Virus record (IMG/VR): IMGVR_UViG_3300029131_000181
Source of the DNA: a virus
Direction: 5' to 3' (one strand)
Length of the DNA stretch: 64,000 bases
The notes beneath the pieces were generated by a model. It was not told where the DNA came from. It was given only the letters and a program-made list of their open reading frames with translations, and made no database searches. Position 1 is the first letter of the stretch, and each line of letters begins with the position of its first letter. Position numbers and translations under genes: made by a program. Positions 11,018 through 35,274 of this stretch are shown here, piece by piece.

Positions 11018-11026
11018 AGCTATTTC

Positions 11027-16019: not shown

Positions 16020-16078
16020 GCTTTATTTTACTATGTTTCATCTTGCTTCTGGGCAAAAAAAGAACGCCCACCAGCAAT

Positions 16079-16549
16079 TTACAGCTTCCAAATCTCGACA
16101 TTTACATTCCAGGCTTTAGCCGCATCGCTGATGATGTCCAGAACCGTGTTCCAATCGCCTCCGGCAAGGCCGCAGCCTAAACCATATGGCAGCCGGATAG
16201 TTACGTCCTGATTATTTCGAGCGCAGTCTCTAAAAAACGAGAACAGCGCAGTCGCCAATGCAGCATAATTCGTCTGTCTTTCACCACGGCCATAGCCATT
16301 TTGGCCGAACAGGTTCACGATGTACAGCTTCGGTTCTACCAGAACCTCCTGGTAAGTACCGAGCTTGTTGCCGTTGTTTCCATAGCAAAACTCCAGATAG
16401 CGCTGATATACCACCGGCCATTGGATGCAAATTTGCATGGCAAGTCCAGCTCCCATCACGCCTTTGCAATTTACTTGCTGGCAAATGTAAGTTGGCTTAC
16501 TCGCAGAAAGTCGTGAAAAAATATTGCCATCAACAAAATTTATGCTCAT
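16079..16549 (-). CDS. macro-domain protein (ADP-ribose binding/processing)
   Basis: ICQQVNCKGVMGAGLA and YGLGCGLAGGDW fit the macrodomain glycine-rich ADP-ribose-binding loops. Start refined to MSINF with AAGGTGG RBS. Stop/start overlap with the upstream lipoprotein gene. Confidence 0.7.
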   Translation of the reverse strand: MSINFVDGNIFSRLSASKPTYICQQVNCKGVMGAGLAMQICIQWPVVYQRYLEFCYGNNGNKLGTYQEVLVEPKLYIVNLFGQNGYGRGERQTNYAALATALFSFFRDCARNNQDVTIRLPYGLGCGLAGGDWNTVLDIISDAAKAWNVNVEIWKL

Positions 16550-16550
16550 C

Positions 16551-16958
16551 TCACTTACCACCTTTTCCAAATTTCGAGGCATTTCCCGGATAAATCGCAT
16601 AGCCCGTGCGATAATCAACGCTATCGTCTCGGTATACGAGCTCTACATTCGACATGCTGGTATAAAAGACTTTATCACGATAACGGCTATCGTTGATTTC
16701 AAACTTGATGTTTTGCCCGTTGTCCACGATTTCGTAGCTTACAAGAGCAGATACAGTCCAGATGTTATCATAGCGAAAATGAATGTAATTGTATTCCGGT
16801 TCCGTATCAGCGCTTTCCGGTGTAGCCAGCATCTGACTCGGAATGTCTTCGAGTTCAGACATTGTGGTACTTGTCACAGTGCTGATTGCGTCCTCACAGC
16901 CAGCCAAAGGTAGAGCCAGGCAGCACAGCACCAAAGCAGTTCCAATAAATTTTTTCAT
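16551..16958 (-). CDS. lipoprotein
   Basis: Signal peptide plus lipobox LPLAGC. GGAGAAA RBS. Confidence 0.65.
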   Translation of the reverse strand: MKKFIGTALVLCCLALPLAGCEDAISTVTSTTMSELEDIPSQMLATPESADTEPEYNYIHFRYDNIWTVSALVSYEIVDNGQNIKFEINDSRYRDKVFYTSMSNVELVYRDDSVDYRTGYAIYPGNASKFGKGGK

Positions 16959-16981
16959 AGTTATTTCTCCGTCTGATTTTT

Positions 16982-17012
16982 ATTGTACGCAGTTCGCACA
17001 AAAGAAAAAGCT
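16982..17012 (-). promoter_or_regulatory. promoter P4 with conserved spacer element
   Basis: Minus strand reads ...ttttgtgcgaactgcg-TACAAT. The -35 is weak. Confidence 0.4.
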
Positions 17013-17283
17013 ACCCAACAGCCATAAGGCCACTGAGCAGCTTAGTGTGAATTCTATTGTGTGCATAGTATCTTTCGTACAAATTCGATGGTATGAGATT
17101 CGCACGCCGGGTCAAGACACATCGGCAGCTACGCATCCTGGCACCTACGGTTCCAACGGCAAAAAGCGCAGCTACGCAACAAATAAGCAAAAAGAAAAAG
17201 CCGCCCACCCGGTCAGGGGTGAACGGCAGGAAACGCTATCTATGTAAAAAAACGACTGAGTTCGTCAGAGGTCTTGTAATCTA

Positions 17284-18807
17284 TCAGGCAGCCATCTTCG
17301 CTGCGGTTTTGCCCTTCGGACCCTTCTTCCGTGCATTGGCTTCAAGCTCCTTCTTGTTGGTATCATACCAAACCTCGAACTCCTTGAAGTTGTTCAACGC
17401 CCAAATCTCAGGAGAAGCCTTGCGACCGTAAGTTTCTTCCAACAGGTGGATAACTTTGCGGCCAACTTCTTCCATGATTTCGGCATCGTATTTGCCGCCA
17501 CCGCAGTAAAACCCTTCAGGCATAATAATGTCGTATTTAGGGTCAAGAACTTCAAGCCCCGGCTCCAAAACGCGAATGCCTTTGTAGCCAGCTTTGCGTA
17601 CAGCTTCAAATTTGAAGCGGTCCTTTTCGGCAGCATCTGCGTGCGGATATTTTCCATTATACTCATAAATGAGTCTCTGGATATGGTCCACGAAGTCTAA
17701 TCCCAAAAGACTATTTTCGCCCAAGATGTTTCGAACATCAAAGAAGGGGTTGGCAATTCCGTTTTCACCGGCAAATGCCAACATGGGACGTGTGTAAAAC
17801 CACTCCGGCTTGGAAATGGCATTGATTCTTCGCATTTTGCAGTCGTAGCATCCAGTAAGACCGTTGTTCACAGAACGAACAATATTGTTAATTGCAGCTT
17901 CGAATTCTTGCCCGCAATCACGGCATTTGAAGAAGGCTTTTTTGTTGCTTTGAACAGTTACTTCTGAAGCAGAAAGCTTGTTTTTACTACTCCACATGGA
18001 GGCTGCTTTCGGACATTGCGACGCAAGGTCATTGATGCCGGGAACAACCCTCCGACCTACGCAAACTAGGCATCCAGTGTTGCCGTTTTTTACAGCACAA
18101 ACAACATCTCCAATTATGGCTTTGAACTCTTGCCCACAATCCGGGCACACAAAGAAAGCTTTTTTCCCGCTTTTAGCTGTGACTTCTGAAGCGGAAAGCT
18201 TATTTTTATTACTCCACATAGCGGCTGCTTCTGGGCACTGTGACGCAAGGTCATTGATGCCAGGGGCAACTCTTAGTCCTCTGCAAACAGGGCAACCTGT
18301 GTTTCCGTTACTTACAGAATAGACAACGTGTTCGATTTTGGCTTCAAATTCTTCCCCGCAGTCCGGGCATACGAATATCGCCTTTTTGTTGCATTTGACA
18401 GCAATTTCCGAGGCAGACTTTTTGTTTTTGTTACTCCACATAGCTGCAATTTCCGGGTATTTCGACGCAAGGTCGTTGATGCCGGGGATAATCTTTCTTC
18501 CTGCGCAAACAGAGCAACCCGTGAATCCCTTGTCTACAGAACGAACAACATTAAAGATTCTGCTTTCAAATTCCTGCCCGCAATCAGGACACACAAAAGT
18601 GAGTTTTTTATTGCTTCCAGTAGTAACTTCAAAGGCAAGTTTCTTATCTTTTTCGCTCAGCATTGCAGCTACTTTTGGGCAAGCAACAGCAAGGCAATTT
18701 TTCTTAACCACTTCATACGGCATCTCAATGCCAAGAGCCGGAATAGGAGCGCAAGAAGCGCAGTTGCAAGAGTTAGCGTGCATCATAATTTTCATGTTAG
18801 TATTCAT
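17284..18807 (-). CDS. zinc-ribbon repeat protein (4x treble-clef DUF4379-like repeats) with C-terminal Vsr/DUF559-like endonuclease domain
   Basis: Four tandem ~75 aa repeats, each FVCPDCGQEF...GNTGC.VC.G...PGINDLAS...AAMWS.KNK. C-terminal IYEYNGKYPHADAAEKDRFKFEAVRKAGYKGIRV matches the Vsr/DUF559 E-x-DG...H...D..R...L...G..V.R pattern. Start refined to MNTNMK with AAAGGAG RBS. Confidence 0.7.
   Translation of the reverse strand: MNTNMKIMMHANSCNCASCAPIPALGIEMPYEVVKKNCLAVACPKVAAMLSEKDKKLAFEVTTGSNKKLTFVCPDCGQEFESRIFNVVRSVDKGFTGCSVCAGRKIIPGINDLASKYPEIAAMWSNKNKKSASEIAVKCNKKAIFVCPDCGEEFEAKIEHVVYSVSNGNTGCPVCRGLRVAPGINDLASQCPEAAAMWSNKNKLSASEVTAKSGKKAFFVCPDCGQEFKAIIGDVVCAVKNGNTGCLVCVGRRVVPGINDLASQCPKAASMWSSKNKLSASEVTVQSNKKAFFKCRDCGQEFEAAINNIVRSVNNGLTGCYDCKMRRINAISKPEWFYTRPMLAFAGENGIANPFFDVRNILGENSLLGLDFVDHIQRLIYEYNGKYPHADAAEKDRFKFEAVRKAGYKGIRVLEPGLEVLDPKYDIIMPEGFYCGGGKYDAEIMEEVGRKVIHLLEETYGRKASPEIWALNNFKEFEVWYDTNKKELEANARKKGPKGKTAAKMAA
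17930..18640. repeat. intragenic tandem nucleotide repeats (~225 bp units, about 85% identical)
   Basis: For example, 17950-18090 versus 18175-18310 align base for base with few substitutions. They encode the zinc-ribbon repeat units. Confidence 0.6.
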
Positions 18808-18837
18808 GATAGATTTCTCCTTTGTTATCAATAAAAA

Positions 18838-18888
18838 TAAAAAAGCAGCCACCCTTCCCTCTTTTGAGGGCAAAAGCGACTGCTTTAC
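18838..18888 (-). terminator. intrinsic terminator
   Basis: Long imperfect hairpin AAGCAGCC...GGCTGCTT with U-runs in minus orientation. Confidence 0.4.
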
Positions 18889-18927
18889 GTTCAATGGGTA
18901 TTGAGTTGTTATTCATGAAGAATTGCT

Positions 18928-19113
18928 TCACTCGTCCAGCATAACCTGCAAACGGGCGTTGAATTCCTTCATGTCGGCGCTTTCCTCGGCTGCAGCAAGG
19001 ACACGCGGATAAATTTCCGGATTCATGCTCTTCAGCATGTTCAGAGTAGAAAGAAGCAGAGGGTTGGTGATAGTCATAGTAAGCATCTCCTTGTTATTCA
19101 TAGTAATGTTCAA
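18928..19113 (-). CDS. small hypothetical protein (61 aa)
   Basis: ATGA overlap with the upstream gene. Confidence 0.35.
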   Translation of the reverse strand: MNITMNNKEMLTMTITNPLLLSTLNMLKSMNPEIYPRVLAAAEESADMKEFNARLQVMLDE

Positions 19114-19949
19114 ACGTTGGTATTCGTGCGATGGCCTTTCAGCGTGCCCTTGTTGAACTGTGTCAAACGGGCGTGCTTCAGAACAAATCCGTCTTCGAAT
19201 TGAACGTCAACGGCGTTTGTGCTGATGATGCGAATGATGGTTGCTTTCGAGCCATCATTCATGGTCTTGGTCATAGGTCCGCTATACTCGACCTTAAAAT
19301 CGAAAGGAAGCGGCTTATGCTTGGTGCAGCAGGGACAAGAAGAACTGCCGTTATTGATGCAGTGGACAAGAGAATTCACGTGAGTGACGTATTCTTCTCC
19401 GCAATCCGGGCATACAATGACGACCTTCTTGCAGCTATTGGCACTTACTTCACGCGGGGAGAAAGCGTTTTTGCTGCTCCACATTTTTGCCACGGCAGGA
19501 GATGTGGTTGCCAAGTCATTGGTTCCGGGAACGACTTTCATGCCACGGCATACGGGGCAAGTGAAGGTTCCATTCTCGATGTCTTTGACCAAAGAGATGA
19601 TTTTTGTTGTGTACTCTGCATGACAATCAGGGCATACAACAATCACCTTTTCGGGACTGTCACAGCGAACTTCGTCGGGATGAATCGTGTTTTTAGGACT
19701 CCACATAGCTGCAATTTTGGGATACTTGGTAGCCAAATCATTGACTCCGGGAACAAGCTTTTCGCTATGGGTTTCTTCGGCTTTGAATGCCGTAGTTACC
19801 TTACGGTTTTTGACCGTTTTGAATCGGCAGACAGGGCAGGCAGTTACGCCACGCTGCTTAGCTCTAACAAGGTTTGCCTCGTAGGTTGTGTATTTGCAAC
19901 CGCAATCGGGGCAGATGGTGATGACTTTTTCGTTCATGTTAATGTTATT
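19110..19949 (-). CDS. zinc-ribbon repeat protein (paralogue of 17284..18807), no recognisable nuclease domain
   Basis: Repeats ITICPDCGCKY...ACPVCRF, VVCPDCHAEY...CPVCRGMKVVPGTNDLAT, VIVCPDCGEEY...SSCPCC. Start refined to MNNINMNEK. The 5' extension overlaps a terminator and a promoter. Confidence 0.6.
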   Translation of the reverse strand, partial: NNINMNEKVITICPDCGCKYTTYEANLVRAKQRGVTACPVCRFKTVKNRKVTTAFKAEETHSEKLVPGVNDLATKYPKIAAMWSPKNTIHPDEVRCDSPEKVIVVCPDCHAEYTTKIISLVKDIENGTFTCPVCRGMKVVPGTNDLATTSPAVAKMWSSKNAFSPREVSANSCKKVVIVCPDCGEEYVTHVNSLVHCINNGSSSCPCCTKHKPLPFDFKVEYSGPMTKTMNDGSKATIIRIISTNAVDVQFEDGFVLKHARLTQFNKGTLKGHRTNTNV

Positions 19950-20009
19950 CATGATAGTTCCGGGTGCTGCTCTTGATGCAATCTCCACAGCGGGTCGGTC
20001 GCTTCTGCA

Positions 20010-20045
20010 AAACAAAAAGGACAACCTCAAAATGAGGCTGTCCTT
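20010..20045 (-). terminator. leader terminator between promoter (20101..20128) and the zinc-ribbon gene
   Basis: AAGGACAACCTC-aaaat-GAGGCTGTCCTT perfect 12 bp stem plus U-run. About 55 nt upstream of the start codon. Confidence 0.5.
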
Positions 20046-20100
20046 GCAAAAGCGGAATGTTAAAAATAAATTGGTAAGTGGTATCTTTGATACAACATCT

Positions 20101-20128
20101 ATCATAGCCATCTCGCACACATTGTCAA
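20101..20128 (-). promoter_or_regulatory. strong sigma-70-like promoter
   Basis: Minus strand reads TTGACA-atgtgtgcgagatggc-TATGAT (16 nt spacer). The spacer resembles the conserved element. Confidence 0.55.
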
Positions 20129-20130
20129 AC

Positions 20131-20168
20131 AAAAAAAGACCCTGCCCGCATTTTGCTGCGAGCAGGGT
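20131..20168 (-). terminator. intrinsic terminator after the acidic-protein gene
   Basis: ACCCTGCCCGC...GCGAGCAGGGT hairpin flanked by A- and T-runs. Possibly bidirectional. Confidence 0.5.
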
Positions 20169-20188
20169 TTGCTTTTGCACTGTTGTGC

Positions 20189-20509
20189 TTAGCCTTCAAG
20201 GTCGAAGGTGTAGCTGTCTTCTTTCATTGCAACAAGGCCCTTAAACGTCTGGCACTCGGCGTCGTCCAGGAATGCCTTGATGGTCAGGCTGGTATCCTCG
20301 TTATCCAGCCATTCGGGACGCATACGGACAACGAGGTCGTGCAGCTCTCCGACGACATAGGCCATCAGGTCCTGGTCGCCCAGGGCCTCACCAATTGCTT
20401 CATCATCGTATTCGACAGGGAAGCTGATGGAAGCGGCGAGGCCGTCGAGTTCGTCAAAATCTTTGGGACGGATTACAGTGGCTTCAAGTTTCAGAATGCT
20501 AGTGCTCAT
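20189..20509 (-). CDS. small highly acidic protein (106 aa)
   Basis: About 25% Asp+Glu with few basic residues. AAGGAG RBS. Directly downstream of promoter P5. Confidence 0.55.
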   Translation of the reverse strand: MSTSILKLEATVIRPKDFDELDGLAASISFPVEYDDEAIGEALGDQDLMAYVVGELHDLVVRMRPEWLDNEDTSLTIKAFLDDAECQTFKGLVAMKEDSYTFDLEG

Positions 20510-20557
20510 GGTAAAATCTCCTTTTTGTGTGTTGTGGTTTGTCTTTCAACATTTTTA

Positions 20558-20585
20558 ATTGTACGCAATTCGCACGCTGTAGCAA
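20558..20585 (-). promoter_or_regulatory. promoter P5 with conserved spacer element
   Basis: Minus strand reads TTGCTA-cagcgtgcgaattgcg-TACAAT. Confidence 0.55.
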
Positions 20586-20638
20586 TACAAAATTTCTTAT
20601 ATTGGGTTCGCAATTTCTTGTATTTGCCTTGGGATTCT

Positions 20639-20720
20639 GCACAAATCAAGACCTATGAAAGGGTGAAATCCTACACAAATCAAGACCTTAACACACCCCA
20701 AAAACAACACAAATCAAGGA
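20639..20720. repeat. three 14-15 bp direct repeats (A/G)CACAAATCAAG(A/G)(C/A) at exact 34 bp spacing (iteron-like)
   Basis: Copies begin at 20639, 20673 and 20707. The surrounding region (20590-20775) has no convincing ORF. Confidence 0.55.
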
Positions 20721-20776
20721 TTTTGCTTCACCAATTCTTGCCGCCGTGTACACCGCACACCAGGCAAAACGCCTCA

Positions 20777-21070
20777 TCAATGCTCCTGCAGTTCATCGAC
20801 CTGAATCCGCGTGGGCCCATGAGCATGTTCCCGCACAAAATATAGGTTTCGCTCATGCCCCGGCCGCTGATACTTATGGTGTTCCCAAAGACATGAACGG
20901 TTGAGCCATCTCGACACATGGCAAACATTATATACGTCTCGCTTTCTGTTTTTGTTTCTTATCATTCTAGGCAAATCGCATAATGAGTCAATTTCAGACA
21001 TTCTGGAATAAGCATCCATTAGGCAGCGTTCCCTTTTGAGGTTGTTGGCTACATAATAACCACGTGGCAT
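20777..21070 (-). CDS. hypothetical small basic protein (uncertain)
   Basis: 97 aa ORF starting immediately after the TAA of the upstream gene (TAAATG). Arg/His-rich. Could be non-coding. Confidence 0.25.
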   Translation of the reverse strand: MPRGYYVANNLKRERCLMDAYSRMSEIDSLCDLPRMIRNKNRKRDVYNVCHVSRWLNRSCLWEHHKYQRPGHERNLYFVREHAHGPTRIQVDELQEH

Positions 21071-21880
21071 TTATTCTTCCGCACTAATCATCAGCCCATG
21101 AATGTAGTTTTTTGAATGGCTTTTCCCACTTTTTAACGCTTTTACATCAATAATAGCAGCTCTATAAATAGGCTGTTTCAACCTTCTAAAGCCATCGGAC
21201 AATTTGTCGTAATATTTATATGGTGCGTACCAAATCATGTAATCTGCATCACTATTTTTTATGATGCTTTGAAATTTTATATCATGTGCATAGAAGTGGA
21301 GCTGTGACGGAGAGACATAATTGATTTGACCTTTTTCAGGGATAATATAAGTTTGACCGGCGAAAAGTTGCGTATATGCAGTGGATTCGTCATAAACAAA
21401 AAATATAGTTTTGAAGTTTTCATGGTTTTGTTGGTAAAGTGGAATTTTGTTATTGTGACTCGAAACAACTCGCTCAAAGGAATCAAAATACCACTTGAAT
21501 TGATGGTCCTCCATTGTAGGCAAGTCCGTAACAGCGTTTATTACGACATCTTGTGTTTCGCTTGTAATGACGCCAGCATTTTTGAATTTTCTATACACTT
21601 GACTTTCTTTTTCTGCTTTTGGATTATATAATTTGCCTTTTTTCCCTTTCCTCGTATTATCCTCTATCTTCATAACATCCATCATAAGGCCATATTTATC
21701 CGAGTAAAAATCCGGTGGTGGTGCATTATGTGCAGAGGTATCTATCCATTCATTCCAGAAGTTTTTGCTTTGAATGATGGAACGCAGTTCCGCTTCTTCT
21801 TTTGTATTACATAATAAGCAAATTTCTTTTGTTGGCTCTGTTTGAAATTTACGAATTAACTGTTTTTCTGATTCAATCAT
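21071..21880 (-). CDS. hypothetical protein
   Basis: Start refined to MIESEKQ with an AAGAGGG RBS. AT-rich gene. Confidence 0.5.
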   Translation of the reverse strand: MIESEKQLIRKFQTEPTKEICLLCNTKEEAELRSIIQSKNFWNEWIDTSAHNAPPPDFYSDKYGLMMDVMKIEDNTRKGKKGKLYNPKAEKESQVYRKFKNAGVITSETQDVVINAVTDLPTMEDHQFKWYFDSFERVVSSHNNKIPLYQQNHENFKTIFFVYDESTAYTQLFAGQTYIIPEKGQINYVSPSQLHFYAHDIKFQSIIKNSDADYMIWYAPYKYYDKLSDGFRRLKQPIYRAAIIDVKALKSGKSHSKNYIHGLMISAEE

Positions 21881-21912
21881 AACCATCGCCCTCTTTCTGC
21901 GAAACAAAAAGC

Positions 21913-21986
21913 TTCCCACCGCAGTCAGTGTGATACTGATTACGATGGAGGATTAAACCTTTTGTGATAGTCTTATTATACCACGC
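21913..21986 (-). promoter_or_regulatory. repeated promoter/5'-leader element copy A (extended -10 TGGTATAAT)
   Basis: About 75 bp, about 85% identical to 23291..23368. Minus strand reads gcgTGgTATAATaag followed by a conserved leader. Confidence 0.45.
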
Positions 21987-22173
21987 TTCGTGAATTACTC
22001 GAATTACTCAAGGCCAATCTTAGTACACCCCTCCTTCAGGTGGGGTAGTTGACTTGTATGAGGTTCGCATAATCGGTTAACCGTCATACCTCATGAATCC
22101 GACCAGACCGGACTTTAAATTTCTTTGTAAACAAAAAATAGTCCGCACAGAACTGAATCTGTACGGGCTCGTA

Positions 22174-22638
22174 TTAGTCATGAGGATGTTCGTGGCATGG
22201 TTCAGGCGGCATACCATGCGGGTCAGGCTCTTGGAAGTGACCATGGTCCCCGATGATTTCCGAAGTACGGATACCGTTCGCTTTCCGGCAAGCCTCAATG
22301 GTTTTAGAAAGCACTTCCTTGACATCGCGCGGGTTCTTGATACGACGGATATCGATTTCCGGTGTCATAGCATCCGTGGAGCAGAGATGGATGCTGCCAA
22401 CACGGCACAGACGCTCATAGAAGTTCTGCTTGAATGCGATGTCCCGGACGCGGTACAGCTGAATCTCGTCCTCGCGCAAATTGAAGCAGCCACGCTGGAT
22501 GATGAGTTTGGTCTCGGTCAGGGTGTACTTCGTAAAGGATAGCGGCAGAGAAAAAATGGTGTGGCGTTTTCGGTCGGTCCAGAGAATTTTCTCCTTGTCC
22601 AAGTCGATGCCGAACTCGCCGTTTTTGAGGGTGGACAT
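22174..22638 (-). CDS. bacterial PH-domain (bPH_2/DUF304-like) protein with His-rich C-terminus
   Basis: The pattern TETKLIIQRGCFNLREDEIQLYRVRDIAFKQNFYERLCRVGSIHL fits the bPH_2 fold. Extended -10 TGGTATAAT at 22731-22739 upstream. Confidence 0.6.
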   Translation of the reverse strand: MSTLKNGEFGIDLDKEKILWTDRKRHTIFSLPLSFTKYTLTETKLIIQRGCFNLREDEIQLYRVRDIAFKQNFYERLCRVGSIHLCSTDAMTPEIDIRRIKNPRDVKEVLSKTIEACRKANGIRTSEIIGDHGHFQEPDPHGMPPEPCHEHPHD

Positions 22639-22815
22639 GGTATGGTTCCTTTCGTTATGTGATTGGTTTTGGTTATTGGTATTCTGCTTGATGGTGTGTG
22701 GAATGATGTTATAGTCTTTATATTGAGTATATTATACCATGCTGTGATGATTTTAGCAATTCCATTTAAAGTGTTAGTACGCAAACAAAGCCCGGTTCAC
22801 TATTGGTCTCCAATA

Positions 22816-23265
22816 TCAACCATTTTCTAGGTTCCCTGTGCTCTTGTTTGTTGCGGAAAGGACGTATTCTTTGCCGTATAGTGTTACCCAAAAATTGTTA
22901 CAACTACCATTAAAATAGCCACGATTTTTCAAGTCTTCGAAACGTAGGCGCGCTTTTCTTGTCGCTTCTTTTTGGTTTGCGTTGTTTTCTCGGTCTTTGT
23001 ATCCATTTCCCGTCATAAAAAGCATTCGCAATTCAGAGTTGTTATCAATCACTATAGGAACACTATCTTGACCATTTGCGAGTTCTAGTGCCTTTTTCAA
23101 TATTGTAATAGATTCCTTGCCATCAATCTTGGAAAGCCATTCTTCAGCGTCCTTAGTAGTCACTGTCACTTTTTCATTTCTCATAACAGCTTTTTTTCGC
23201 TTATTATGGTAATAAGTATAAATGTGCTGTGCCACAATTTTCTTGTCGTCATTTTCGCTTTTCAT
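22816..23265 (-). CDS. hypothetical protein
   Basis: 149 aa ORF preceded by repeated promoter/leader element copy B. Confidence 0.5.
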   Translation of the reverse strand: MKSENDDKKIVAQHIYTYYHNKRKKAVMRNEKVTVTTKDAEEWLSKIDGKESITILKKALELANGQDSVPIVIDNNSELRMLFMTGNGYKDRENNANQKEATRKARLRFEDLKNRGYFNGSCNNFWVTLYGKEYVLSATNKSTGNLENG

Positions 23266-23290
23266 ACAGAATCCTCCTTAAAATAAACAG

Positions 23291-23368
23291 CCTCCCACCG
23301 CAGTCAGCATACTACTGATTACGATGGGAGGCTCAAAACCTTTTGTGATGGTTCTATTATATCACGCC
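23291..23368 (-). promoter_or_regulatory. repeated promoter/5'-leader element copy B (extended -10 TGATATAAT)
   Basis: Homologous to 21913..21986. Confidence 0.45.
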
Positions 23369-23399
23369 TTGCGAAAAACTCAAGGCAAATTTCAATAAC

Positions 23400-23789: not shown

Positions 23790-23809
23790 TAACTTCTACC
23801 TCGCTGATT

Positions 23810-24270: not shown

Positions 24271-24353
24271 GACCTAGCAGCTTGGCCAACGGTATAGAAT
24301 GCATGTATAATATATGTATGAAATGATACTACATAACTGTCGGAGGAATCTTT

Positions 24354-24758: not shown

Positions 24759-24844
24759 AAAAATACGACATTTGTATTCCCATCTGTGCCGGTGAACATA
24801 CCGAACATGAAATAGCGATATTTTTTCATGATATGCTCCCACCA

Positions 24845-27955: not shown

Positions 27956-29813
27956 TGGATGTATTTTCCGTATTACAATGACCGCATGATGTTTTCTTGT
28001 TTTCTACAAGACTTTGGGTTATCGCAAAGCATTCGTTTCCGCAATCACATTGACATTTCCATCGAGCATGACCGTTTTGGCTTCCTGCTCTCTCAATGAC
28101 CTTTAGCTTACCAAAGTGCATATTAGCTAAATCGTAAGTTCTTCCTTTTTTGACGAACTTATCGCGTGATGGATTTGCTTTCAAAAAGGCATCTGCTTCC
28201 TCTTCTGTCATGCTTTCGTATTCATTGGCAAATAACCAATGATATCCTCCGGCAACTGTACGTAGCTTGTTGCAGCAGTTCAAGATAGGCGAACCGCCGC
28301 TAATCCCGTATTTAAGAGAAGCCTCTTTTGCTGTAGAAAATCTCTCTTTTGTTTCAACGCAAATCACACTCTTGAAGTGTTTTTGTTTATAGCATTCAGG
28401 GCAGTTATGCCCGTATACTCTATCGGCTATTATCATCTTGTAGGAATGACCGTTTTTGCATTTCCACCAGCATTTTTCTGCAGACCCGGATGAGAAATAT
28501 TCGGGCTTCAAATTCTTGTTTTTTTCGTAATCCCATTCAGCAACAATTTCAGGATGTTCTGTAGCAAGGTTGTTCTTTTCGTTCCGTCTTCTTTTGCCTG
28601 TTGTACAAACAGGACATGTTGCGTTTTCTTTTGCTCTGCCATTGATGGGTGCTTCCCATTTATGCCCGCACTTAGAGCAAATCCAATGAACCATTTCTGA
28701 GCTAGATGATGACACCATCATCGGGTCAATGCCTACATTCAGTTCGTAGTCCCATTCTTTCAGGAGTTCCGGATGCCGTCCGCCCATACTTCGTTCAGCT
28801 TTGTAATCTTTGTATTGACGATAGATGTCTTTTGAATCCTTTTGTGTATCAATGTTAGGTTCAGAAACGCCAAGCATCTCTAAGCATTGGCGAATTGCTG
28901 CGTCGAGCGTTGCGTGCCCTCTATTGTTTTCTCTGATGATATTCTCGCTATTACGAATTTCCTGAAGCCCATGCTCGCGAATACGAATTATCCGAATTCC
29001 ATTCTGCTTGCATTTTTCGGACTTTTCTTCGTCATTTTTCACTCTTTTCTCATCAGAATGGTATCGAACACCATCGTATTCTACTGCAGTGCGAATGGAG
29101 GGGATGTAAATGTCCAGCTCTTTTCCAATAACTTTCTTGTTTCCAATAACAGCCTCTGAAAAATACTTTTTTGCATAATACGCTACTGCTTGTTCTTGGA
29201 ACGAGGTCTGTCCTTTATCGATAGTGCTGCATATCGGGCAACTCTTGATACGCTGGATGTAATGATATACGCTTGCCTGCCATTCCGTGCCACAAGCAGA
29301 GCATTTCCACCATACAACAATATTGCTTCCTTGTGTCAGCATACTGACATCTACGTCCTTATTTTTTGCAAAGTCATAGTCTTGCATAGCTTCTGCATTA
29401 TCTACAAGCATTTTCGAAGCTTCGGTAATGTGTTTGCAACAACCGCAAGACTTCACTTTTCCCCGCAGCAAAGAAGAGCGATAAGCAACAAATTCTTTTC
29501 CGCAGCTACACATACAGTTATAACGAATGTTTCTATGCCCCGTGCTTCCAATCGCATCTTCTGCCAAAGAAATAACTTTGATACCGTTGTGTTCTTCGCC
29601 AACCAAATCCTGGTATGTACGTTTACGGTCTTTACCTCGGCAGTCTTTACACTTTAACCCTTTCAAGAGCGCGTCGATACCAATTATCATTGTGTTTCCG
29701 CAGCAGTTACATTTCACCAAATAGGTATCTGCTTTTGAATTAGAGCCGGGGATAGTTTCGAAAACTGTTAAATCTCCGTATGTTTTGCCTGTTCTATTTA
29801 TTTTCGCCGCCAT
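27945..29813 (-). CDS. zinc-ribbon repeat protein with internal Vsr/DUF559-like nuclease motif (paralogue of 17284..18807)
   Basis: Multiple C-x2-C...C-x2-C ribbons (KCNCCGN...CKDCRG; WKCSACGTEW...CPICS; CWWKCKNGH...CPECY). AVEYDGVRYHSDEKRVKNDEEKSEKCKQNGIRIIRIRE matches the Vsr/DUF559 pattern. Stop overlaps the MTase start. Confidence 0.65.
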   Translation of the reverse strand: MAAKINRTGKTYGDLTVFETIPGSNSKADTYLVKCNCCGNTMIIGIDALLKGLKCKDCRGKDRKRTYQDLVGEEHNGIKVISLAEDAIGSTGHRNIRYNCMCSCGKEFVAYRSSLLRGKVKSCGCCKHITEASKMLVDNAEAMQDYDFAKNKDVDVSMLTQGSNIVVWWKCSACGTEWQASVYHYIQRIKSCPICSTIDKGQTSFQEQAVAYYAKKYFSEAVIGNKKVIGKELDIYIPSIRTAVEYDGVRYHSDEKRVKNDEEKSEKCKQNGIRIIRIREHGLQEIRNSENIIRENNRGHATLDAAIRQCLEMLGVSEPNIDTQKDSKDIYRQYKDYKAERSMGGRHPELLKEWDYELNVGIDPMMVSSSSSEMVHWICSKCGHKWEAPINGRAKENATCPVCTTGKRRRNEKNNLATEHPEIVAEWDYEKNKNLKPEYFSSGSAEKCWWKCKNGHSYKMIIADRVYGHNCPECYKQKHFKSVICVETKERFSTAKEASLKYGISGGSPILNCCNKLRTVAGGYHWLFANEYESMTEEEADAFLKANPSRDKFVKKGRTYDLANMHFGKLKVIERAGSQNGHARWKCQCDCGNECFAITQSLVENKKTSCGHCNTENTSSAE

Positions 29814-29958
29814 ATTGAATTTCCCTCTTTAATAAAAAATCCTATGCAGAATCTCTCTGCATAGGATGCCTTTTTACTTATTTGAATAAGGCTGTTTATT
29901 TCTTCCGTCTGAATCTATTATGTCACGGGCTGGTCCCCACAAAAAAATGAGCGTTAAA

Positions 29959-30013
29959 TGTGCGGAAACGCACAAAAAACGCACGCACACATTTTTTGAA
30001 TGATGCGTGCGTT
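29959..30013. promoter_or_regulatory. two palindromes in the divergent intergenic region: TGTGCG-gaaa-CGCACA and AACGCACGCA-N16-TGCGTGCGTT
   Basis: Perfect 6 bp and 10 bp inverted repeats. The half-site TGTGCG equals the core of the conserved promoter-spacer element. Confidence 0.5.
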
Positions 30014-30109
30014 TATGATAGCTTTTATTTAATGAAATGAGAGAATATATAGTGGCACTTCAGAGTAGGGCTTTCTGCTTTCCCCTGTACCCTGTCGTTG
30101 ATGGATGCT

Positions 30110-30236
30110 TTTCATTTGCGCCCGCACTTGGTGCAGACCCAGTAAACAGCATTTGTGCCGGAAGCTGTTACCTGCATCGGGTCGATGCGGGTGTTGAGCT
30201 TACGGTTCCAGTTGTCGCGCAGTTCCGGATGAAATT
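30110..30236 (-). pseudogene. remnant of a zinc-ribbon-repeat gene (3' fragment)
   Basis: Minus-strand translation FHPELRDNWNRKLNTRIDPMQVTASGTNAVYWVCTKCGRK* matches the E(H)PE...W...KN...CxxCG repeat unit. No start context. The plus-strand 161 aa ORF here is rejected. Confidence 0.4.
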
Positions 30237-30245
30237 TAGAAAACA

Positions 30246-30279
30246 CAAAAAGAAGCCGCAGAAACCTATCCTCTGCGGC
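30246..30279 (-). terminator. intrinsic terminator about 20-50 nt downstream of promoter P6
   Basis: GCCGCAGA-aacctatcct-CTGCGGC hairpin plus U-run. Confidence 0.5.
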
Positions 30280-30303
30280 TACACTTATTTATCTTATATT
30301 TCC

Positions 30304-30330
30304 TATCATATCCAATTCGCACGGATGCAC
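30304..30330 (-). promoter_or_regulatory. promoter P6 with conserved spacer element
   Basis: Minus strand reads TTGTGC-atccgtgcgaattgga-TATGAT. Upstream (30328-30368) are four GGCAAAA repeats with about 11 bp phasing. Confidence 0.5.
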
Positions 30331-30488
30331 AAGGCAAAATTGTGGCAAAACCGTAGCAAAACAGTGGCAAAGACAAGGTACATGGGACTTGTTCCGTTGC
30401 TGAACAGGAAATGCCAAAAAACAACTGCTTTGCTCAAATATGTCATCTCGTGTATTTTCTTGTCATTTATTGTAAATTCGCGCTTGCT

Positions 30489-30530
30489 TTTTGGTGCGGG
30501 ATGTGCTATTATAATTACATAAGATGACAG
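30489..30530 (+). promoter_or_regulatory. plus-strand promoter for the 30569 gene
   Basis: TTGCTT-N17-TATTAT/TATAAT. The GAAAGGAG RBS follows. Confidence 0.4.
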
Positions 30531-30568
30531 CATTGTACAGCTAACGACATATTTGAAAGGAGTACACC

Positions 30569-31969
30569 ATGATTTATGTTAACCTCGCCATGCCCGTGAT
30601 TTTCTATAAGCAGCTGCCCGGCATCGCTAAGAAGCTGGATGTGGATGCTGATTTTTTGAAAGGCTTTCTCACCAACGCCAGGTGTTATGTCGAGGATGCC
30701 GGAAAAGGTGAAGTGCTTGAGCTGGACAACTCGGCCGACACGATAACGAAAGTTGTCGCAACCCATGAGAAGCGTTTCTATGGCGCGGAAGCCATTGTGG
30801 AATTCGCCAAGAGCAAAGGCGTGGATATTCCTGCACTGAACCATTTTGAACTTGGTGCAGATATCTCTGCCCATGCAACGGAAGACCAAGTTGCCAACAT
30901 CACTGCATTGGCCGCACGAGTCGAGCGCCTCAATAATCGGTACAAGAGTCTTGCCCGGCTTGAAGCCCCGGACGTCATCCTGATGAACGAAGCAAGGATG
31001 GTGCGTGACGCAGTAGAGCAGCTGGAAGATAACAGCGGTACATACTCCCCGGCTCTTGACCAGAACGGGGTTGCCTATCAATCCTTGAAGGATATTGGGT
31101 ATTCTCTTGTCACCGGTTGGGACAAGTCGGTACTTGAAAAGAACAGCAATAAGGATACGGAGGCCACCTTTCCCAAAGAGCCCGACTTTCAAAGGCTGGC
31201 ATCGCTGGTCAAAAAAGCCATCGGAACCCGCACACAGGGTAAGTTTGCGTTTCAAGCGGGGCTGACTCGTGGATATATCAGTAACCTTGCGAACGGCAAC
31301 GCGAAAGCTCAGCCGACCGAGAATACCATCAAGAAAATTGCAAGCGCAACAGATGCTGTCACGGAGAACGAGCTTCGTATCGCCTGTGGGTATGAGCCCT
31401 TGCCTGACGACGGGAAAGACAAGCTCTCTATGCAGCGTGCAAGCATGTCTGATGACGCATGGCAGAAAGACAACGTGGATGCATTCCTCTCTTTTCTGAA
31501 TGAAACGATTCCAATGTCCACTCCTCTTTCGTCCACTGAAATTCTTCAAGCTCTTTTCAAGGAAAAATACGGTGACAAGAACGACCAGATTCTGCTGGAA
31601 AAGGTCTCTGCCCCCGGCACCTATCGTACGGAAGGTACGGCTGCTAATGTCATTCTACCCATTCGTCTTTGTTGGTTCAGCTTCAAGCGGATGCTGATGC
31701 AGACTCTCTATGTAGGACTTATCGGGCATTACAGCAAAAACGATGAGCTGTACATTACCGGATACATTTCTTCTGTGAAAGAGCTGCATGACGCGGTTCC
31801 GGCGCTGCGAGGCGGCATTGATGCGGCCTATGACGCGAGTCTGCCGGAGGGAATCGACATCATGAAGTTCCCGGTATTTTACACGGCTTCCAATGTTCAG
31901 GAAGCATACAAGCGGGTCCAGCAGAAAATCGTCTCCAAAATTGACGAGTCAGCCGCCGTAAGCTTGTGA
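30569..31969 (+). CDS. hypothetical protein with internal XRE-type HTH
   Basis: 466 aa. Segment RTQGKFAFQAGLTRGYISNLANGNAKAQPTENTIKKIASA fits the Cro/C1 HTH. Confidence 0.6.
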   Translation: MIYVNLAMPVIFYKQLPGIAKKLDVDADFLKGFLTNARCYVEDAGKGEVLELDNSADTITKVVATHEKRFYGAEAIVEFAKSKGVDIPALNHFELGADISAHATEDQVANITALAARVERLNNRYKSLARLEAPDVILMNEARMVRDAVEQLEDNSGTYSPALDQNGVAYQSLKDIGYSLVTGWDKSVLEKNSNKDTEATFPKEPDFQRLASLVKKAIGTRTQGKFAFQAGLTRGYISNLANGNAKAQPTENTIKKIASATDAVTENELRIACGYEPLPDDGKDKLSMQRASMSDDAWQKDNVDAFLSFLNETIPMSTPLSSTEILQALFKEKYGDKNDQILLEKVSAPGTYRTEGTAANVILPIRLCWFSFKRMLMQTLYVGLIGHYSKNDELYITGYISSVKELHDAVPALRGGIDAAYDASLPEGIDIMKFPVFYTASNVQEAYKRVQQKIVSKIDESAAVSL

Positions 31970-32042
31970 CTTCAGTCATGAGTTAGGCGACTTTTCTCTT
32001 GATTTGTAATCTCACATATGGTATAATAATTATGGTGATATT

Positions 32043-32462
32043 ATGCAAATGTTCGTCAATAATAACCTGTCATATGGTAGAGGTTATGTTTACAATATTC
32101 AATATCATATTGTGTGGTGTACAAAGTACAGAAAACCAGTTTTGATAAACGAAACAGAACAATCGCTAAAAGAGTCTCTGCAGCAGACCGCCGAAACCAT
32201 AAAAATCAATATTGTAGAAATGGAATGCATGCCTGACCATATTCACCTGTTGGTGGAGTGTTCACCGCAGCATTTTATCCCGGATATGATAAAAGTGCTT
32301 AAAGGCAACAGTGCAAGAGCTATTTTTATCGCCAATCCGGACTTGAAGAAGCAACTTTGGGGCGGGCATCTTTGGAACCCAAGCTACTTTATTGCAACCG
32401 TCAGTGATAACACGCGCAAACAAGTACAAGAATACATTGCATCTCAAAAAATAAGAAACTGA
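32043..32462 (+). CDS. tnpA: IS200/IS605 Y1 HUH transposase TnpA
   Basis: HUH motif PDHIHLLV. Catalytic Tyr region NPSYFIATV. 139 aa. Confidence 0.85.
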   Translation: MQMFVNNNLSYGRGYVYNIQYHIVWCTKYRKPVLINETEQSLKESLQQTAETIKINIVEMECMPDHIHLLVECSPQHFIPDMIKVLKGNSARAIFIANPDLKKQLWGGHLWNPSYFIATVSDNTRKQVQEYIASQKIRN

Positions 32463-32480
32463 TGAAAGGGGGGCTTCGCA

Positions 32481-33812
32481 GTGAAAATCACTTCCAGCTA
32501 TGCTGTGGAAATCAAAAAGCAGAAAATGTTCGACAATACTATAAAGATTTATCGCGAAGCCGTTTCTTTCTTGATTGGTTGTTTTAACAAAGAATGGGAT
32601 TCTATTCAAAAAGTAGAGGGTGCCAAATCTCGAAAGAGTTTTGCCGAGAAGTTAATTCATACTACAAAATACAGCACTGCTAAATATGATTTCGATGCCA
32701 AGTTTTATAAGTTCCCTAGTTACCTGCGCAGAGCGGCTATTCAAGCAGCACTCGGCTCTGTAAGCAGCTACTACAGTAGCCATAAGAACTGGGAAGCAAA
32801 CGGCAAGGTTGACAGGGAGCCAAAACTTCAATGCGATAGATTTTGCTTCCCGGCTTTTTATAAGACCGTTATGTATGAGGAAAGCAACAAACCAAACCAG
32901 TGCTATCTGAAGCTGTATAAAAACAATGACTGGGTTTGGGTTCCTATCGCAATGCGTGCCACCGATGTCAAATACATCACGAAATACTGGTCACATTGCG
33001 AAAAGAGTGCTCCTGCACTCGAAAAGAAGTACGGGAAGTATTTCCTACGCTTTGCCTTCGAGGAAGAGGTAAAACTCTCCGAAACTGAAATTCAAGACAG
33101 GCGTATCTGCGCTGTAGACCTTGGTCTCAATACTGACGCCGTGTGCAGCATCATGACTGCCGATGGAACTGTCCTTGCAAGAAAATTTATCAATTTTGCA
33201 AGTGAAAAAGACCATCTGTATCATGTGCTCAACCGTATTAAGCGTAAGCAAAGAGAACATGGACCTAAGAGTGCTGCTGCTATGTGGCGTTACGCCAAAG
33301 CCTTGAATAACGATATAGCGAAAAAGGTTGCTGCTGCGATTACTGAATTTGCTGTGCTTTATTCTGTAGATGTGATTGTTTTTGAACATTTGTCATTTAC
33401 AGGCAAAAAGCACGGTGGCAGTAAGGCACAGAAGCTGTCGATGTGGAAGCGTAATTCCATACAGGATTATGTGGAACACAAGGCGCACCGCTGCGGTATC
33501 CGGATTTCGCGTATCTGTGCTTGGGGGACAAGCAAACTCGCCTTTGATGGCAGTGGTGCTCTCAAGCGTGATGAAACCAATCGTGCCCTTGCAACGTTTG
33601 CAAGCGGCAAACAATACAACTGCGACCTAAGTGCGAGCTACAATATTGGCGCTCGCTACTTTGTCAGAGAGTTGCTAAAACCCTTGCCAGCGATGGTAAG
33701 GTCTCAGCTTTCGGCTAATGTTCCGGATGTTGAGCGTAGAATCCAAGTTACACTTGCCACGCTTAAAGTTCTGTATCCTGAGCTTAAAAAACTCAGTACA
33801 CAGGCAGCGTAA
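32481..33812 (+). CDS. tnpB: TnpB (OMEGA RNA-guided endonuclease)
   Basis: RuvC-I CAVDLGLNTDAV, RuvC-II VIVFEHLSF, RuvC-III NCDLSASYNIGARY, CxxC-type Zn region. Confidence 0.85.
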   Translation: MKITSSYAVEIKKQKMFDNTIKIYREAVSFLIGCFNKEWDSIQKVEGAKSRKSFAEKLIHTTKYSTAKYDFDAKFYKFPSYLRRAAIQAALGSVSSYYSSHKNWEANGKVDREPKLQCDRFCFPAFYKTVMYEESNKPNQCYLKLYKNNDWVWVPIAMRATDVKYITKYWSHCEKSAPALEKKYGKYFLRFAFEEEVKLSETEIQDRRICAVDLGLNTDAVCSIMTADGTVLARKFINFASEKDHLYHVLNRIKRKQREHGPKSAAAMWRYAKALNNDIAKKVAAAITEFAVLYSVDVIVFEHLSFTGKKHGGSKAQKLSMWKRNSIQDYVEHKAHRCGIRISRICAWGTSKLAFDGSGALKRDETNRALATFASGKQYNCDLSASYNIGARYFVRELLKPLPAMVRSQLSANVPDVERRIQVTLATLKVLYPELKKLSTQAA

Positions 33813-33985: not shown

Positions 33986-33990
33986 ATGCG

Positions 33991-34260: not shown

Positions 34261-34314
34261 GTTGTTCTGAATGCGGCAAGGTGATTCGCTGCCATAATGG
34301 ATGAGGTGTTTCCT

Positions 34315-34749
34315 ATGACACAAACCGATACCAATACCCGTATTACCGGCCTTGGCTTTTACTTGGATGAAATCGAAAAGCCGATATTTTGCATTTTTCT
34401 TGAGAATCATCGTCAGACTATAGATGCCATGAGCGCATCTGCTTCTGTTCGTGCATTTCTTGACCGTATATGTCTCGATAACGGCCGCATTAACTACGAT
34501 GAGGCGGATAGGCTTTTGGCGAAAGATGAGGATTGTGCTTTGCTCGGTAAATGTCTTGCCTCCGCCCTTAATCACGAATTTGGAGAAGAGTTGCTCTCCT
34601 GCCACTATAGCAGCTCAACTGATATTAACCGTCCGTGCCTTATCCTTTTACCTGAAAAAGTCAAGGATGAACCGGCCATAGCATGTGTGCAAAAGGCAGC
34701 AAATGAGCTGCTCGTCGATTTCGAGCATGTGTGCCACGACACCCACTAA
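34315..34749 (+). CDS. hypothetical protein
   Basis: Start refined to MTQTDTN with GAGGTG RBS. 144 aa. Confidence 0.45.
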   Translation: MTQTDTNTRITGLGFYLDEIEKPIFCIFLENHRQTIDAMSASASVRAFLDRICLDNGRINYDEADRLLAKDEDCALLGKCLASALNHEFGEELLSCHYSSSTDINRPCLILLPEKVKDEPAIACVQKAANELLVDFEHVCHDTH

Positions 34750-34751
34750 AC

Positions 34752-34795
34752 AAAAAAAGAAGGCTGCTACCCGTGATGGGCGGCAGCCTTTTGTC
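34752..34795. terminator. bidirectional intrinsic terminator between convergent blocks
   Basis: AAGGCTGC-tacccgtgatgggcg-GCAGCCTT hairpin flanked by an A-run and a T-run. Confidence 0.55.
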
Positions 34796-34821
34796 TTAAA
34801 AAAGGAAATGACTCGCAAATA

Positions 34822-35274
34822 TTATTTACTCGTTTGTTTTTTTAGCTTGTCCCTCGTTTCCATCAGAATAATCCCAAGCCGGTTCTGACCCGGGATGTTC
34901 CGGCATTTCGGGCAATGGCAGTTTCCCCAGTAGTTATCGTGCCAACTGGTGGTATCTTCCTCGATTGGCTGCGTTCCCGTTTCGAGGAGACGCTGCTTGA
35001 GGTCTTTATTCTGTTCGAATTTAGCCATCACCACGCGGCGCATTACATCGTCCCGGGTTTCGTCCCAGTTGGCAGGGAAAGCCACATGACGGCCAAAATG
35101 CTTAGCCGTTGCCGGAGGCATGTCTGAAAATTGTTTGCGCTCTTCCAGCGGAACCTTGTGGCTCTGAAACGCTGCTTCGGCATTCTTGTAACGAATCCCA
35201 TTCATCACAAATTCGCAAGAATAATAGTTACTCATAAACCAGTAGCGAGGGGTATCTTTTCTAAATCGAATCAT
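34822..35274 (-). CDS. NADAR (DUF1768, YbiA-like) domain protein
   Basis: YWFMSNYY...F...GIRYKNAEAAFQSHK...WDETRDDVMRRVVMAKFEQNKDLKQRLLETG...WGNC follows the NADAR consensus closely. TAGGAGA RBS. Confidence 0.75.
   Translation of the reverse strand: MIRFRKDTPRYWFMSNYYSCEFVMNGIRYKNAEAAFQSHKVPLEERKQFSDMPPATAKHFGRHVAFPANWDETRDDVMRRVVMAKFEQNKDLKQRLLETGTQPIEEDTTSWHDNYWGNCHCPKCRNIPGQNRLGIILMETRDKLKKQTSK

Follow-up and report, generated by a model that had tools for sequence, protein, structure and literature searches.

A macrodomain and a NADAR protein of a prevalent phage-like gut element as candidate erasers of base ADP-ribosylation

ADP-ribose (ADPr) can be removed from nucleic acid bases by macrodomain proteins such as SCO6735 and DarG, which act on thymidine-ADPr, and by NADAR proteins, which act on guanosine-ADPr (PMC9411070, PMC11543638, PMC11825919, PMC13309987). 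A protein of each family is encoded in the window studied here, that is, the whole stretch of 64,000 nucleotides of the IMG/VR virus record IMGVR_UViG_3300029131_000181. An earlier note on this DNA, made from the sequence alone, had read the two genes as a counter-defence kit against ADP-ribosylating systems, and the activities it proposed for the two families are those reported in the literature. In the present analysis, both hydrolases are read as orphan enzymes that, much like antitoxins, would erase ADP-ribose from bases, the macrodomain acting on thymine and the NADAR protein on guanine, against DarTG2/DarTG1-type or related ADP-ribosyltransferase (ART) defences of the host; we consider this reading slightly better than even, with a probability of about 0.55.

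Among macrodomains, TARG1 and DarG rely on a catalytic Lys, whereas SCO6735 has Gln85 and requires Asn27 and Gly128 (PMC9411070). SCO6735 cuts thymidine-linked ADPr on DNA faster than DarG and saves cells from DarT (PMC9411070), and it shows no activity towards ADP-ribosylation of phosphate ends or of the 2'-OH (PMC11833690). The orphan phage macrodomain AdfM (gp104 of the chimallivirus PhiKZ) strips DarT2 marks from DNA and so counters DarTG2, protecting a jumbo phage (PMC13309987).

In NADAR proteins, the subfamily is set by a residue of the last strand, which is Glu in the YbiA type, Asp in the DarT1-linked type and His in the phage gp30.3 type (PMC11125620). All the subfamilies assayed, YbiA and phage versions included, hydrolyse guanine-linked ADPr in DNA and RNA, and no subtype assayed acts on thymidine-ADPr, while protection in the cell is subtype-specific (PMC11125620, PMC11833690). 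Phage NADARs counter DarTG1 (PMC11825919): AdfN (gp30.3 of T4) and the NADARs of the non-T4 phages Bas32 and Bas60 hydrolyse guanine-ADPr and neutralise this system (PMC11825919, PMC11125620). The co-occurrence and fusion of Macro and NADAR domains in large DNA viruses have also been published (Iyer, Burroughs, Anantharaman and Aravind 2022, PMC9503650).

The macrodomain and NADAR proteins

The earlier note had assigned the open reading frames (ORFs) 16079..16549 and 34822..35274 to the two families. Both ORFs are present at these positions (Table 1), and the two glycine-loop peptides it had quoted, NCKGVMGAGLA and GLGCGLAGGDW, occur verbatim in the translation of the former; both genes lie on the minus strand, which the note had left unstated. 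The macrodomain gene is intact, its likeliest start being the ATG at 16549, which gives 156 aa and is preceded by a ribosome-binding site (AAAGGTGG); a longer ORF with a TTG start extends to 16618 and overlaps the upstream lipoprotein-like gene.

The Pfam Macro profile (PF01661) aligns from position 4 to its end at 118, but with 13.5 bits (E 0.071) the match stays under the cut-off of 22, and the macrodomain assignment was therefore tested by independent methods. In homologues of 43-47% identity PF01661 is annotated, and their names are those of macro or Appr-1-p processing proteins. A phmmer search of the PDB returned SCO6735 of Streptomyces coelicolor (5e3b, E 4.4e-13), BT1257 of B. thetaiotaomicron (E 4.4e-10), yeast Poa1p (about 2e-7) and DarG entries; the protein matches PHROG 335 (E 4.6e-36), a family labelled 'phosphatase', and the PADLOC model for DarG (E 7.1e-14), the latter over profile positions 2-143 of 329 only. 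An AlphaFold2 (AF2) model was built from 27 homologues (pLDDT 91.3), and a Foldseek search with it found BT1257 as the best match (TM 0.88, E 4.5e-13), followed by SCO6735, TARG1 and Poa1p and by the macrodomains of DarG from M. tuberculosis and T. aquaticus. There were 183 PDB matches at E<=1e-3, and among the 50 listed all but two are annotated macrodomains. The modelled structure shows the three-layer alpha/beta/alpha fold with two glycine-rich ADPr-binding loops that characterizes macrodomains. The low Pfam score was considered as evidence against a macrodomain and rejected, since the PDB, PHROG, PADLOC and fold comparisons agree; thus, of the profile confirmation that the earlier note had called for, the Pfam Macro part fell short of its cut-off and the other comparisons were all significant.

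The loops GVMGAGLA and GCGLAGG are invariant or nearly so among the homologues. In the 27 of them, down to 42% identity, Q83, G125-C-G-L and G130-G131 are invariant and N27 is conserved in at least 90%; in the phmmer alignment to 5e3b, N27, Q83 and G127 sit on N27, Q85 and G128 of SCO6735. The set of top Foldseek matches of the model (BT1257, SCO6735, TARG1, Poa1p, DarG) is that of the ALC1-like class, and within it the protein is predicted to fall in the Gln-type SCO6735/BT1257 subclass, with Gln in place of the catalytic Lys. These two proteins are its best matches in sequence (E 4e-13 and 4e-10) and fold (TM 0.78-0.88), and like them it is a stand-alone domain of about 150-160 aa that keeps the Asn/Gln/Gly set and has Gln for the Lys of DarG and TARG1. 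It differs from SCO6735 in that the identity is about 25% and Val25 of SCO6735 is Gln25 here, and from both in its setting, which is a phage-like element, beside lipoprotein and UvrD-like helicase genes, rather than a bacterial DNA-damage regulon.

The description of the macrodomain as DarG-like in the earlier note is therefore apt at the level of the class, as the PADLOC match and the structures 5m3i and 5m3e (TM 0.78-0.80) indicate, but the protein is not DarG. This identity was rejected because Gln83 stands at the position of Lys80, because the 156 aa leave out the C-terminal DarT-binding domain, and because no darT gene adjoins: the neighbours encode the lipoprotein-like protein, TnpB and the UvrD-like helicase, and the Pfam scan of 52 window proteins gave no match to a DarT family. 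The protein resembles AdfM in being an orphan phage macrodomain of a class related to DarG, but AdfM is of the Lys type (N23/K78), as DarG2 is, and is imported into the phage nucleus, whereas the window shows no sign of a nucleus-forming phage.

The assignment of the second protein is straightforward. The gene is intact and is the last of three contiguous minus-strand genes (ResIII helicase, p184, NADAR). As the earlier note had expected, the Pfam NADAR profile (PF08719, cut-off 35.1 bits) matches over the full domain, with a score of 92.3 bits (E 5.2e-26) and an alignment from profile position 2 to the last one, 163. In the PDB it matches YbiA (2b3w, E 1.5e-13) and the NADAR of P. nicotianae (8bau, E 3.5e-9), and it falls in a PHROG family. 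Residues E33, K40 and E106 are invariant in 21 homologues and align to the catalytic positions of YbiA and 8bau; in the P. nicotianae enzyme the catalytic residues are E43, K50 and E125 (PMC11543638), to which they correspond. As E106, in the sequence PIEEDT, aligns with the Glu of LVEHT in YbiA, and as the protein begins at profile position 2 and so has no N-terminal extension, it is assigned to the YbiA type. With E. coli YbiA it shares the bare fold and the Glu/Lys/Glu set, and the genomic setting is also comparable, ybiA being in an operon with dinG and rhlE (PMC11125620) and the NADAR gene of the window in a helicase operon. It differs from the YarT-YbiA pair in having no adjacent ART toxin and in lying in a phage context, not in a LexA regulon.

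Two other identities were considered for the NADAR protein and rejected: that of DarG1 (the DarT1-linked BC4488), because the residue is Glu and not Asp, there is no basic N-terminal extension and the neighbours are p184 and the ResIII helicase; and that of an orthologue of gp30.3/AdfN, because the Phage_30_3 profile (PF08010) gave 17.4 bits against a cut-off of 36 and Glu106 is not His. Like AdfN and the NADARs of Bas32 and Bas60, it is an orphan NADAR of about 150 aa, but unlike the gp30.3-type proteins with their last-strand His it has Glu and an extra CxCxxC insert. Its best relatives in isolated phages are the NADARs of SPbeta-like phages, Phass-1 and AR9/PBS1, with 42-46% identity. The insert (NCHCPKC, residues 119-124) directly follows the conserved YWG, is common to many NADAR homologues of the phage clade and is missing from YbiA-like bacterial ones; it may be a small metal-binding knuckle.

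The proposed role builds on the fold, family and catalytic residues of both proteins, on their mobile-element context and on the conserved linkage of their genes, all of which are direct observations; the substrates, the timing of expression and the presence of DarTG-type defences in the host are what we infer. The macrodomain would bind ADPr through its two glycine loops, and its Asn27 and Gln83, equivalent to Asn27 and Gln85 of SCO6735, would hydrolyse the ribose-thymine bond on ADP-ribosylated single-stranded DNA, while Glu33, Lys40 and Glu106 of the NADAR protein would cut the N-glycosidic ribose-guanine bond in DNA or RNA. Both enzymes, each encoded next to a helicase gene, would be expressed during infection and would remove the marks that ARTs of the DarTG2 type (thymine) and DarTG1 type (guanine), or similar ones, put on replicating phage DNA. 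Replication of the phage could then resume, the macrodomain acting as an AdfM-like and the NADAR protein as an AdfN-like anti-DarT factor.

Linkage of the two genes and the element that carries them

Relatives of the window were compared by tblastn with 14 window proteins over 186 fetched loci. They share a backbone with the order AcrVA2-like protein ... ResIII helicase, p184, NADAR, a helix-turn-helix (HTH) gene on the opposite strand, small ORFs, lipoprotein, macrodomain, UvrD-like helicase ... metallo-beta-lactamase (MBL) protein ... DUF3990. In a compact form (locus L043) this backbone takes up 17.5 kb, with 4.2 kb from the NADAR to the macrodomain gene on the same strand. In most close relatives the two genes are likewise on the same strand, 3.8-4.2 kb apart; the spacing is 10.1 kb in L004-L007 and 18 kb in the window, where both are on the minus strand.

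In the window, terminator-like sites lie upstream of the lipoprotein-macrodomain unit (17227-17200 and 17043-17008), and three terminator-like hairpins precede the helicase-p184-NADAR unit, at 38468-38068, so that the two are separate transcription units. Either gene can also be missing in close relatives. Where the slot was readable, the macrodomain gene was intact in 13, partial in one and absent in eight of 22 NADAR-centred loci, and the NADAR gene was present in 13 and absent in two of 15 macrodomain-centred loci; both genes are therefore accessory and are lost independently. Hence, the proteins do not form a kit in the sense of an operon, as they are 18 kb apart, in different transcription units and lost one without the other; what does stand of the earlier proposal is that both family assignments hold, that the catalytic residues are intact and that the genes are carried by a phage-like mobile element.

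Linkage of the two families is not confined to this lineage. On an unrelated AT-rich IMG/VR contig of 238 kb (L158), a macrodomain ORF of 178 aa (3119-3655) is followed at once by a NADAR ORF of 138 aa (3656-4072), and on two further unrelated contigs the pair lies within 4.6 kb and 9 kb; the linkage of macrodomain and NADAR genes arises again independently. In a second lineage of the element (lineage B, about 55% identity), the macrodomain gene is still beside the UvrD-like helicase gene, and no NADAR gene was found within 10 kb of the macrodomain or ART-HD gene in the covered part of the interval.

In the databases, both hydrolases have many homologues that are truncated or fused to fragments of TnpB (PF07282), RRXRR (PF14239) or PF05107, and in one relative (L107) a deletion fuses p184 to the 3' half of the macrodomain gene; the two genes are thus often disrupted in natural populations. 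The lipoprotein-like gene is translationally coupled to the macrodomain gene and is kept with it in lineages A and B (about 40% identity in B); no family match was found for its product. In L004-L007, a gene for RlaP (PF10127, an RNA-repair-associated nucleotidyltransferase; 10652..11659) stands between the macrodomain gene and the UvrD-like helicase gene, the place taken by TnpB in the window.

The interval 14728..33812 between the two hydrolase genes is an insertion hotspot, and about 21 kb of cargo present here are missing in the compact relative. This cargo is mobile or selfish DNA, namely TnpB, a trio of DUF4379 genes, a complete type II restriction-modification (R-M) system, DUF4238, and IS200 TnpA with a TnpB-like gene (Table 1). 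Insertions of mobile elements and R-M genes have driven the macrodomain and NADAR genes apart in the window.

Table 1. Features of the window, in order of position; E values are those of the family matches.
Feature	Position	Strand	Remarks
PDC-M10 candidate defence pair	1720..2672	-	DUF3990 ART-clan protein 2166-2672 (PDC-M10A), partner 1720-2169 (PDC-M10B), 4-nt overlap
MBL protein, 386 aa	6632..7792	-	backbone gene; faint match to the Anti-Pycsar protein Apyc1
UvrD-like superfamily-1 helicase, 908 aa	11848..14574	-	conserved downstream neighbour of the macrodomain gene
IS605-family TnpB (OrfB)	14728..15837	-	inserted between macrodomain and UvrD-like helicase genes; absent there in L043
Macrodomain ADP-ribosylhydrolase, 156 aa	16079..16549	-	ALC1-like class, putative SCO6735/BT1257 Gln-type subclass; key residues N27, Q83, G125-C-G127-L-A-G-G131
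Lipoprotein-like protein, 135 aa	16551..16958	-	signal peptide and LAGC lipobox; stop 1 nt before the macrodomain ATG
Variable cargo parting macrodomain and NADAR genes	17284..33812	.	items in the following seven rows
Three DUF4379 zinc-finger proteins	within 17284..33812		one with a weak homing-endonuclease match
Type II restriction endonuclease	24845-25981		E 2e-129
DUF4238	25978-26925		
EcoRI-like methyltransferase	26846-27955		E 1e-105
Conserved HTH protein	30569-31969	+	
IS200 TnpA	32043-32462		
TnpB-like gene	32481-33812		
NADAR (YbiA-type) N-glycosidase, 150 aa	34822..35274	-	catalytic E33, K40, E106; CxCxxC insert at C119-C124
p184, 184-aa protein	35296..35850	-	in relatives the NADAR gene always follows it directly
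ResIII/DEAD superfamily-2 helicase, 731 aa	35855..38050	-	first gene of the helicase-p184-NADAR unit
295-aa protein	40017..40904	-	AcrVA2-like backbone gene; see text
ART-HD protein, 465 aa	49237..50634	+	N-domain, ART-like domain, HD phosphohydrolase domain
YpsA/SLOG-family protein, C-terminal 98 aa	63704..64000	-	runs off the end of the window

The window comes from an element of about 230-280 kb that is phage-like and very prevalent in the human gut, and the two hydrolase genes lie in a variable accessory region of it with many genes for DNA metabolism. In IMG/VR, relatives on viral contigs number 35 for the ART-HD gene, 57 for the NADAR gene and at least 509 for the macrodomain gene, on contigs of up to 346 kb, and there are dozens of near-identical viral contigs of up to 222 kb; assemblies in ENA, Logan and JGI contain contigs of the element of 232-280 kb. 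That it is very common is shown by one window protein, the PDC-M10 partner, which is found without a single change in 4,923 blocks of the assembly index. No match to the region 14000-38500 was found by megablast among GenBank phages and PLSDB plasmids, and accordingly the element is without a close annotated relative. More widely, records of isolated phages with homologues number 850 for the macrodomain and 458 for the NADAR protein (of 50,697).

The window has a GC content of about 46%, and no tRNA genes were found in it. The host is probably of the Lachnospiraceae type, to judge from one window protein with homologues of 40% identity in genomes of Catenibacillus scindens, Acetatifactor and Eubacteriales. 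Among its other genes are those for Mor-like activators, radical-SAM, MBL, VWA, SPFH and PIN proteins, HNH/RRXRR nucleases, IS200/IS605 elements and R-M modules. The protein encoded by 40017..40904 has a 97%-identical homologue (in L001) with a precomputed match to AcrVA2-like (PF26125), whereas the Pfam scan of the window protein itself gave none. The partial YpsA/SLOG-family protein at the end of the window is 96% identical to a 184-aa PF06908 protein of L187; in large phages, SLOG domains are reportedly found together with Macro and NADAR.

ADP-ribosyltransferase candidates of the element

The earlier note had also remarked, as an aside, that the hydrolases might manage an ART of the element itself, and this remark has gained support from two sides, a DUF3990 gene pair that it had missed and the motifs of the protein encoded by 49237..50634. 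DUF3990 belongs to the ART clan (PMC7955679). The protein encoded by 2166..2672 matches DUF3990 in Pfam (E 1.3e-51) and PDC-M10A in PADLOC (E 9.5e-78), and the product of 1720..2169 matches PDC-M10B (E 3e-55); both predicted components of a PDC-M10 system are thus adjacent, and the DUF3990 ART-fold gene has a partner of its own in the PDC-M10B gene that overlaps it.

In 49237..50634, the earlier note had suspected an ART-like N-domain. An ART-like stretch is indeed present, but instead of being N-terminal it lies in the middle of the protein (about residues 195-280), with the HD domain making up the C-terminal third. The residues of interest are Y203-R204-G205, S218-W219 and E260-x-E262 in the former and H317, H321, H355-D356, H394 and D425-D430 in the latter. 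In 36 sequences of 23-38% identity, R204, G205, S218 and E262 are invariant and Y203, W219 and E260 are conserved in at least 90%, and the motif residues fall on predicted strands (199-206, 218-220 and 262-264). They align to R72 (LWRG), SAS and EQEVMIP of ModA and are colinear with the R-S-ExE motif of T4 ModA and ModB; the protein would accordingly carry a ModA/B-like signature, with Arg on strand 1, Ser-x-Ser/Thr on strand 2 and the following helix, and Glu-x-Glu on strand 5. A profile-profile comparison with ModA/ModB by hhalign gave a weak match (probability 33%, P 4.6e-4). With this match and the support at motif level, the protein is a candidate ART. Its gene is separated from that of the NADAR protein by 14 kb and from that of the macrodomain by 33 kb, and its constant neighbour is p509. 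This fusion family of ART-like and HD domains is the more unusual item of the window and offers more upside than the pair of hydrolases.

The proposed erasure of base marks and the alternatives

Several observations weigh against the reading of the two proteins as anti-DarT erasers. Where DarG and AdfM have their catalytic Lys, the macrodomain has Gln, and the NADAR protein is of the YbiA type; the two genes are in separate transcription units and are lost independently (macrodomain in 8/22 and NADAR in 2/15 loci); the element has ART candidates of its own; and an RNA-repair-type nucleotidyltransferase gene, that of RlaP, stands beside the macrodomain gene in some relatives. The host of the element is only inferred. 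In addition, no capsid, portal or terminase gene was found when 52 window proteins were scanned with PHROG and Pfam, nor was there one among the genes called up to 10 kb beyond each end; for this reason the label of phage rests on the IMG/VR listing and PHROG matches, and the element may be a phage-plasmid or a megaplasmid. On the other side, anti-defence-like genes are found in the same window, namely the AcrVA2-like gene, known as such from the precomputed match of its homologue, the MBL gene with its faint Apyc1 match and the YpsA/SLOG gene at the edge.

The MBL and YpsA/SLOG genes also bear on an alternative that we regard as unlikely, although it is the strongest of those considered, in which the hydrolases chiefly destroy small diffusible immune molecules derived from ADPr rather than repairing ADP-ribosylated DNA. 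The molecules destroyed might be cyclic ADPr isomers from TIR/Thoeris-type systems, ADPr-1''-phosphate, or other NAD+-derived signals or toxins. Such a role has been proposed for the phage Macro and NADAR proteins that co-occur in large DNA viruses (PMC9503650), and both the YpsA/SLOG gene at the right edge and the backbone MBL gene, with its resemblance to the cyclic-nucleotide-degrading Apyc1, would suit it, as would the presence of the ADPr-1''-phosphatase Poa1p among the sequence and fold matches of the macrodomain and the label of PHROG 335. However, SCO6735, TARG1 and DarG, all of which act on DNA, are closer to the macrodomain than Poa1p in both sequence and fold, and the catalytic Gln of SCO6735 is conserved. 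Moreover, phage NADAR and macrodomain proteins were later shown to de-ADP-ribosylate DNA and to defeat DarTG (PMC11825919, PMC13309987), and in the window helicase genes adjoin both hydrolase genes.

It is somewhat less likely again that the hydrolases are self-immunity or regulatory partners of the element's own ARTs, ART-HD or DUF3990, clearing their marks from DNA, RNA or proteins. The candidates for such ARTs are there, as the window encodes the DUF3990 protein and the invariant R204 and S218 of ART-HD, with E260/E262, are colinear with the R-S-ExE of ModA/ModB. There is also a hint of ART-NADAR systems in PADLOC, where the NADAR protein matches PDC-M42C and the DUF3990 protein weakly PDC-M42A; an ART-NADAR toxin-antitoxin pair, YarT-YbiA, is known (PMC11125620), and in one relative (L125) the NADAR and DUF3990 genes are just 3.5 kb apart. 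The case is weakened, however, by the cognate PDC-M10B partner that the DUF3990 protein already has, by the distance of ART-HD from both hydrolase genes, its constant neighbour p509 being no hydrolase, and by the independent loss of the hydrolases, the backbone being kept in relatives that lack one or the other. T4, too, has Alt, ModA and ModB together with a NADAR, and yet this NADAR acts against the host DarT1 (PMC11825919). Less probable than either of these is a housekeeping or RNA-repair function. On this view, what Tpt1/KptA-type repair leaves behind, ADPr-1''-phosphate or ADPr>P, would be removed by the macrodomain, and the NADAR protein would serve as an N-glycosidase like YbiA, with riboflavin-pathway or other small N-ribosides as substrates. 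The RlaP gene directly downstream of the macrodomain gene in L004-L007 fits with the former, and the last-strand Glu of the YbiA type with the latter, a role in riboflavin damage control being documented for YbiA in work cited in PMC11543638. But RlaP is absent from the window and from the compact relatives, a Pfam scan of 52 window proteins brought up no RNA ligase, Tpt1/KptA, 2H or riboflavin gene, and SCO6735 does not cleave phosphate-end ADPr (PMC11833690).

The erasure of base ADP-ribosylation is thus the reading we prefer. Compared with the viruses described in PMC9503650, the window is one more instance of Macro-NADAR co-occurrence; while small-molecule ADPr targets were favoured there, the SCO6735-type and YbiA-type subclasses found here lean towards base-linked ADPr on nucleic acids. 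As AdfN and AdfM have been characterized and the co-occurrence has been published, both anti-DarT activities in phages and the pairing of the two families are established, and the gain is incremental. What is new is modest, namely that a hypervariable slot of an abundant gut element contains the genes for both a putative Gln-type, SCO6735-like macrodomain and a YbiA-type NADAR protein.

Should the reading be correct, one of the commonest large mobile elements of the human gut would carry erasers for both known defensive ADP-ribosylations of DNA bases, thymine and guanine, and the candidate anti-defence factors would gain a phage macrodomain of the Gln type (SCO6735-like) and a phage NADAR protein of the YbiA type. 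In gut Clostridia, DarTG-like or related ART defences would then also exert real selection.

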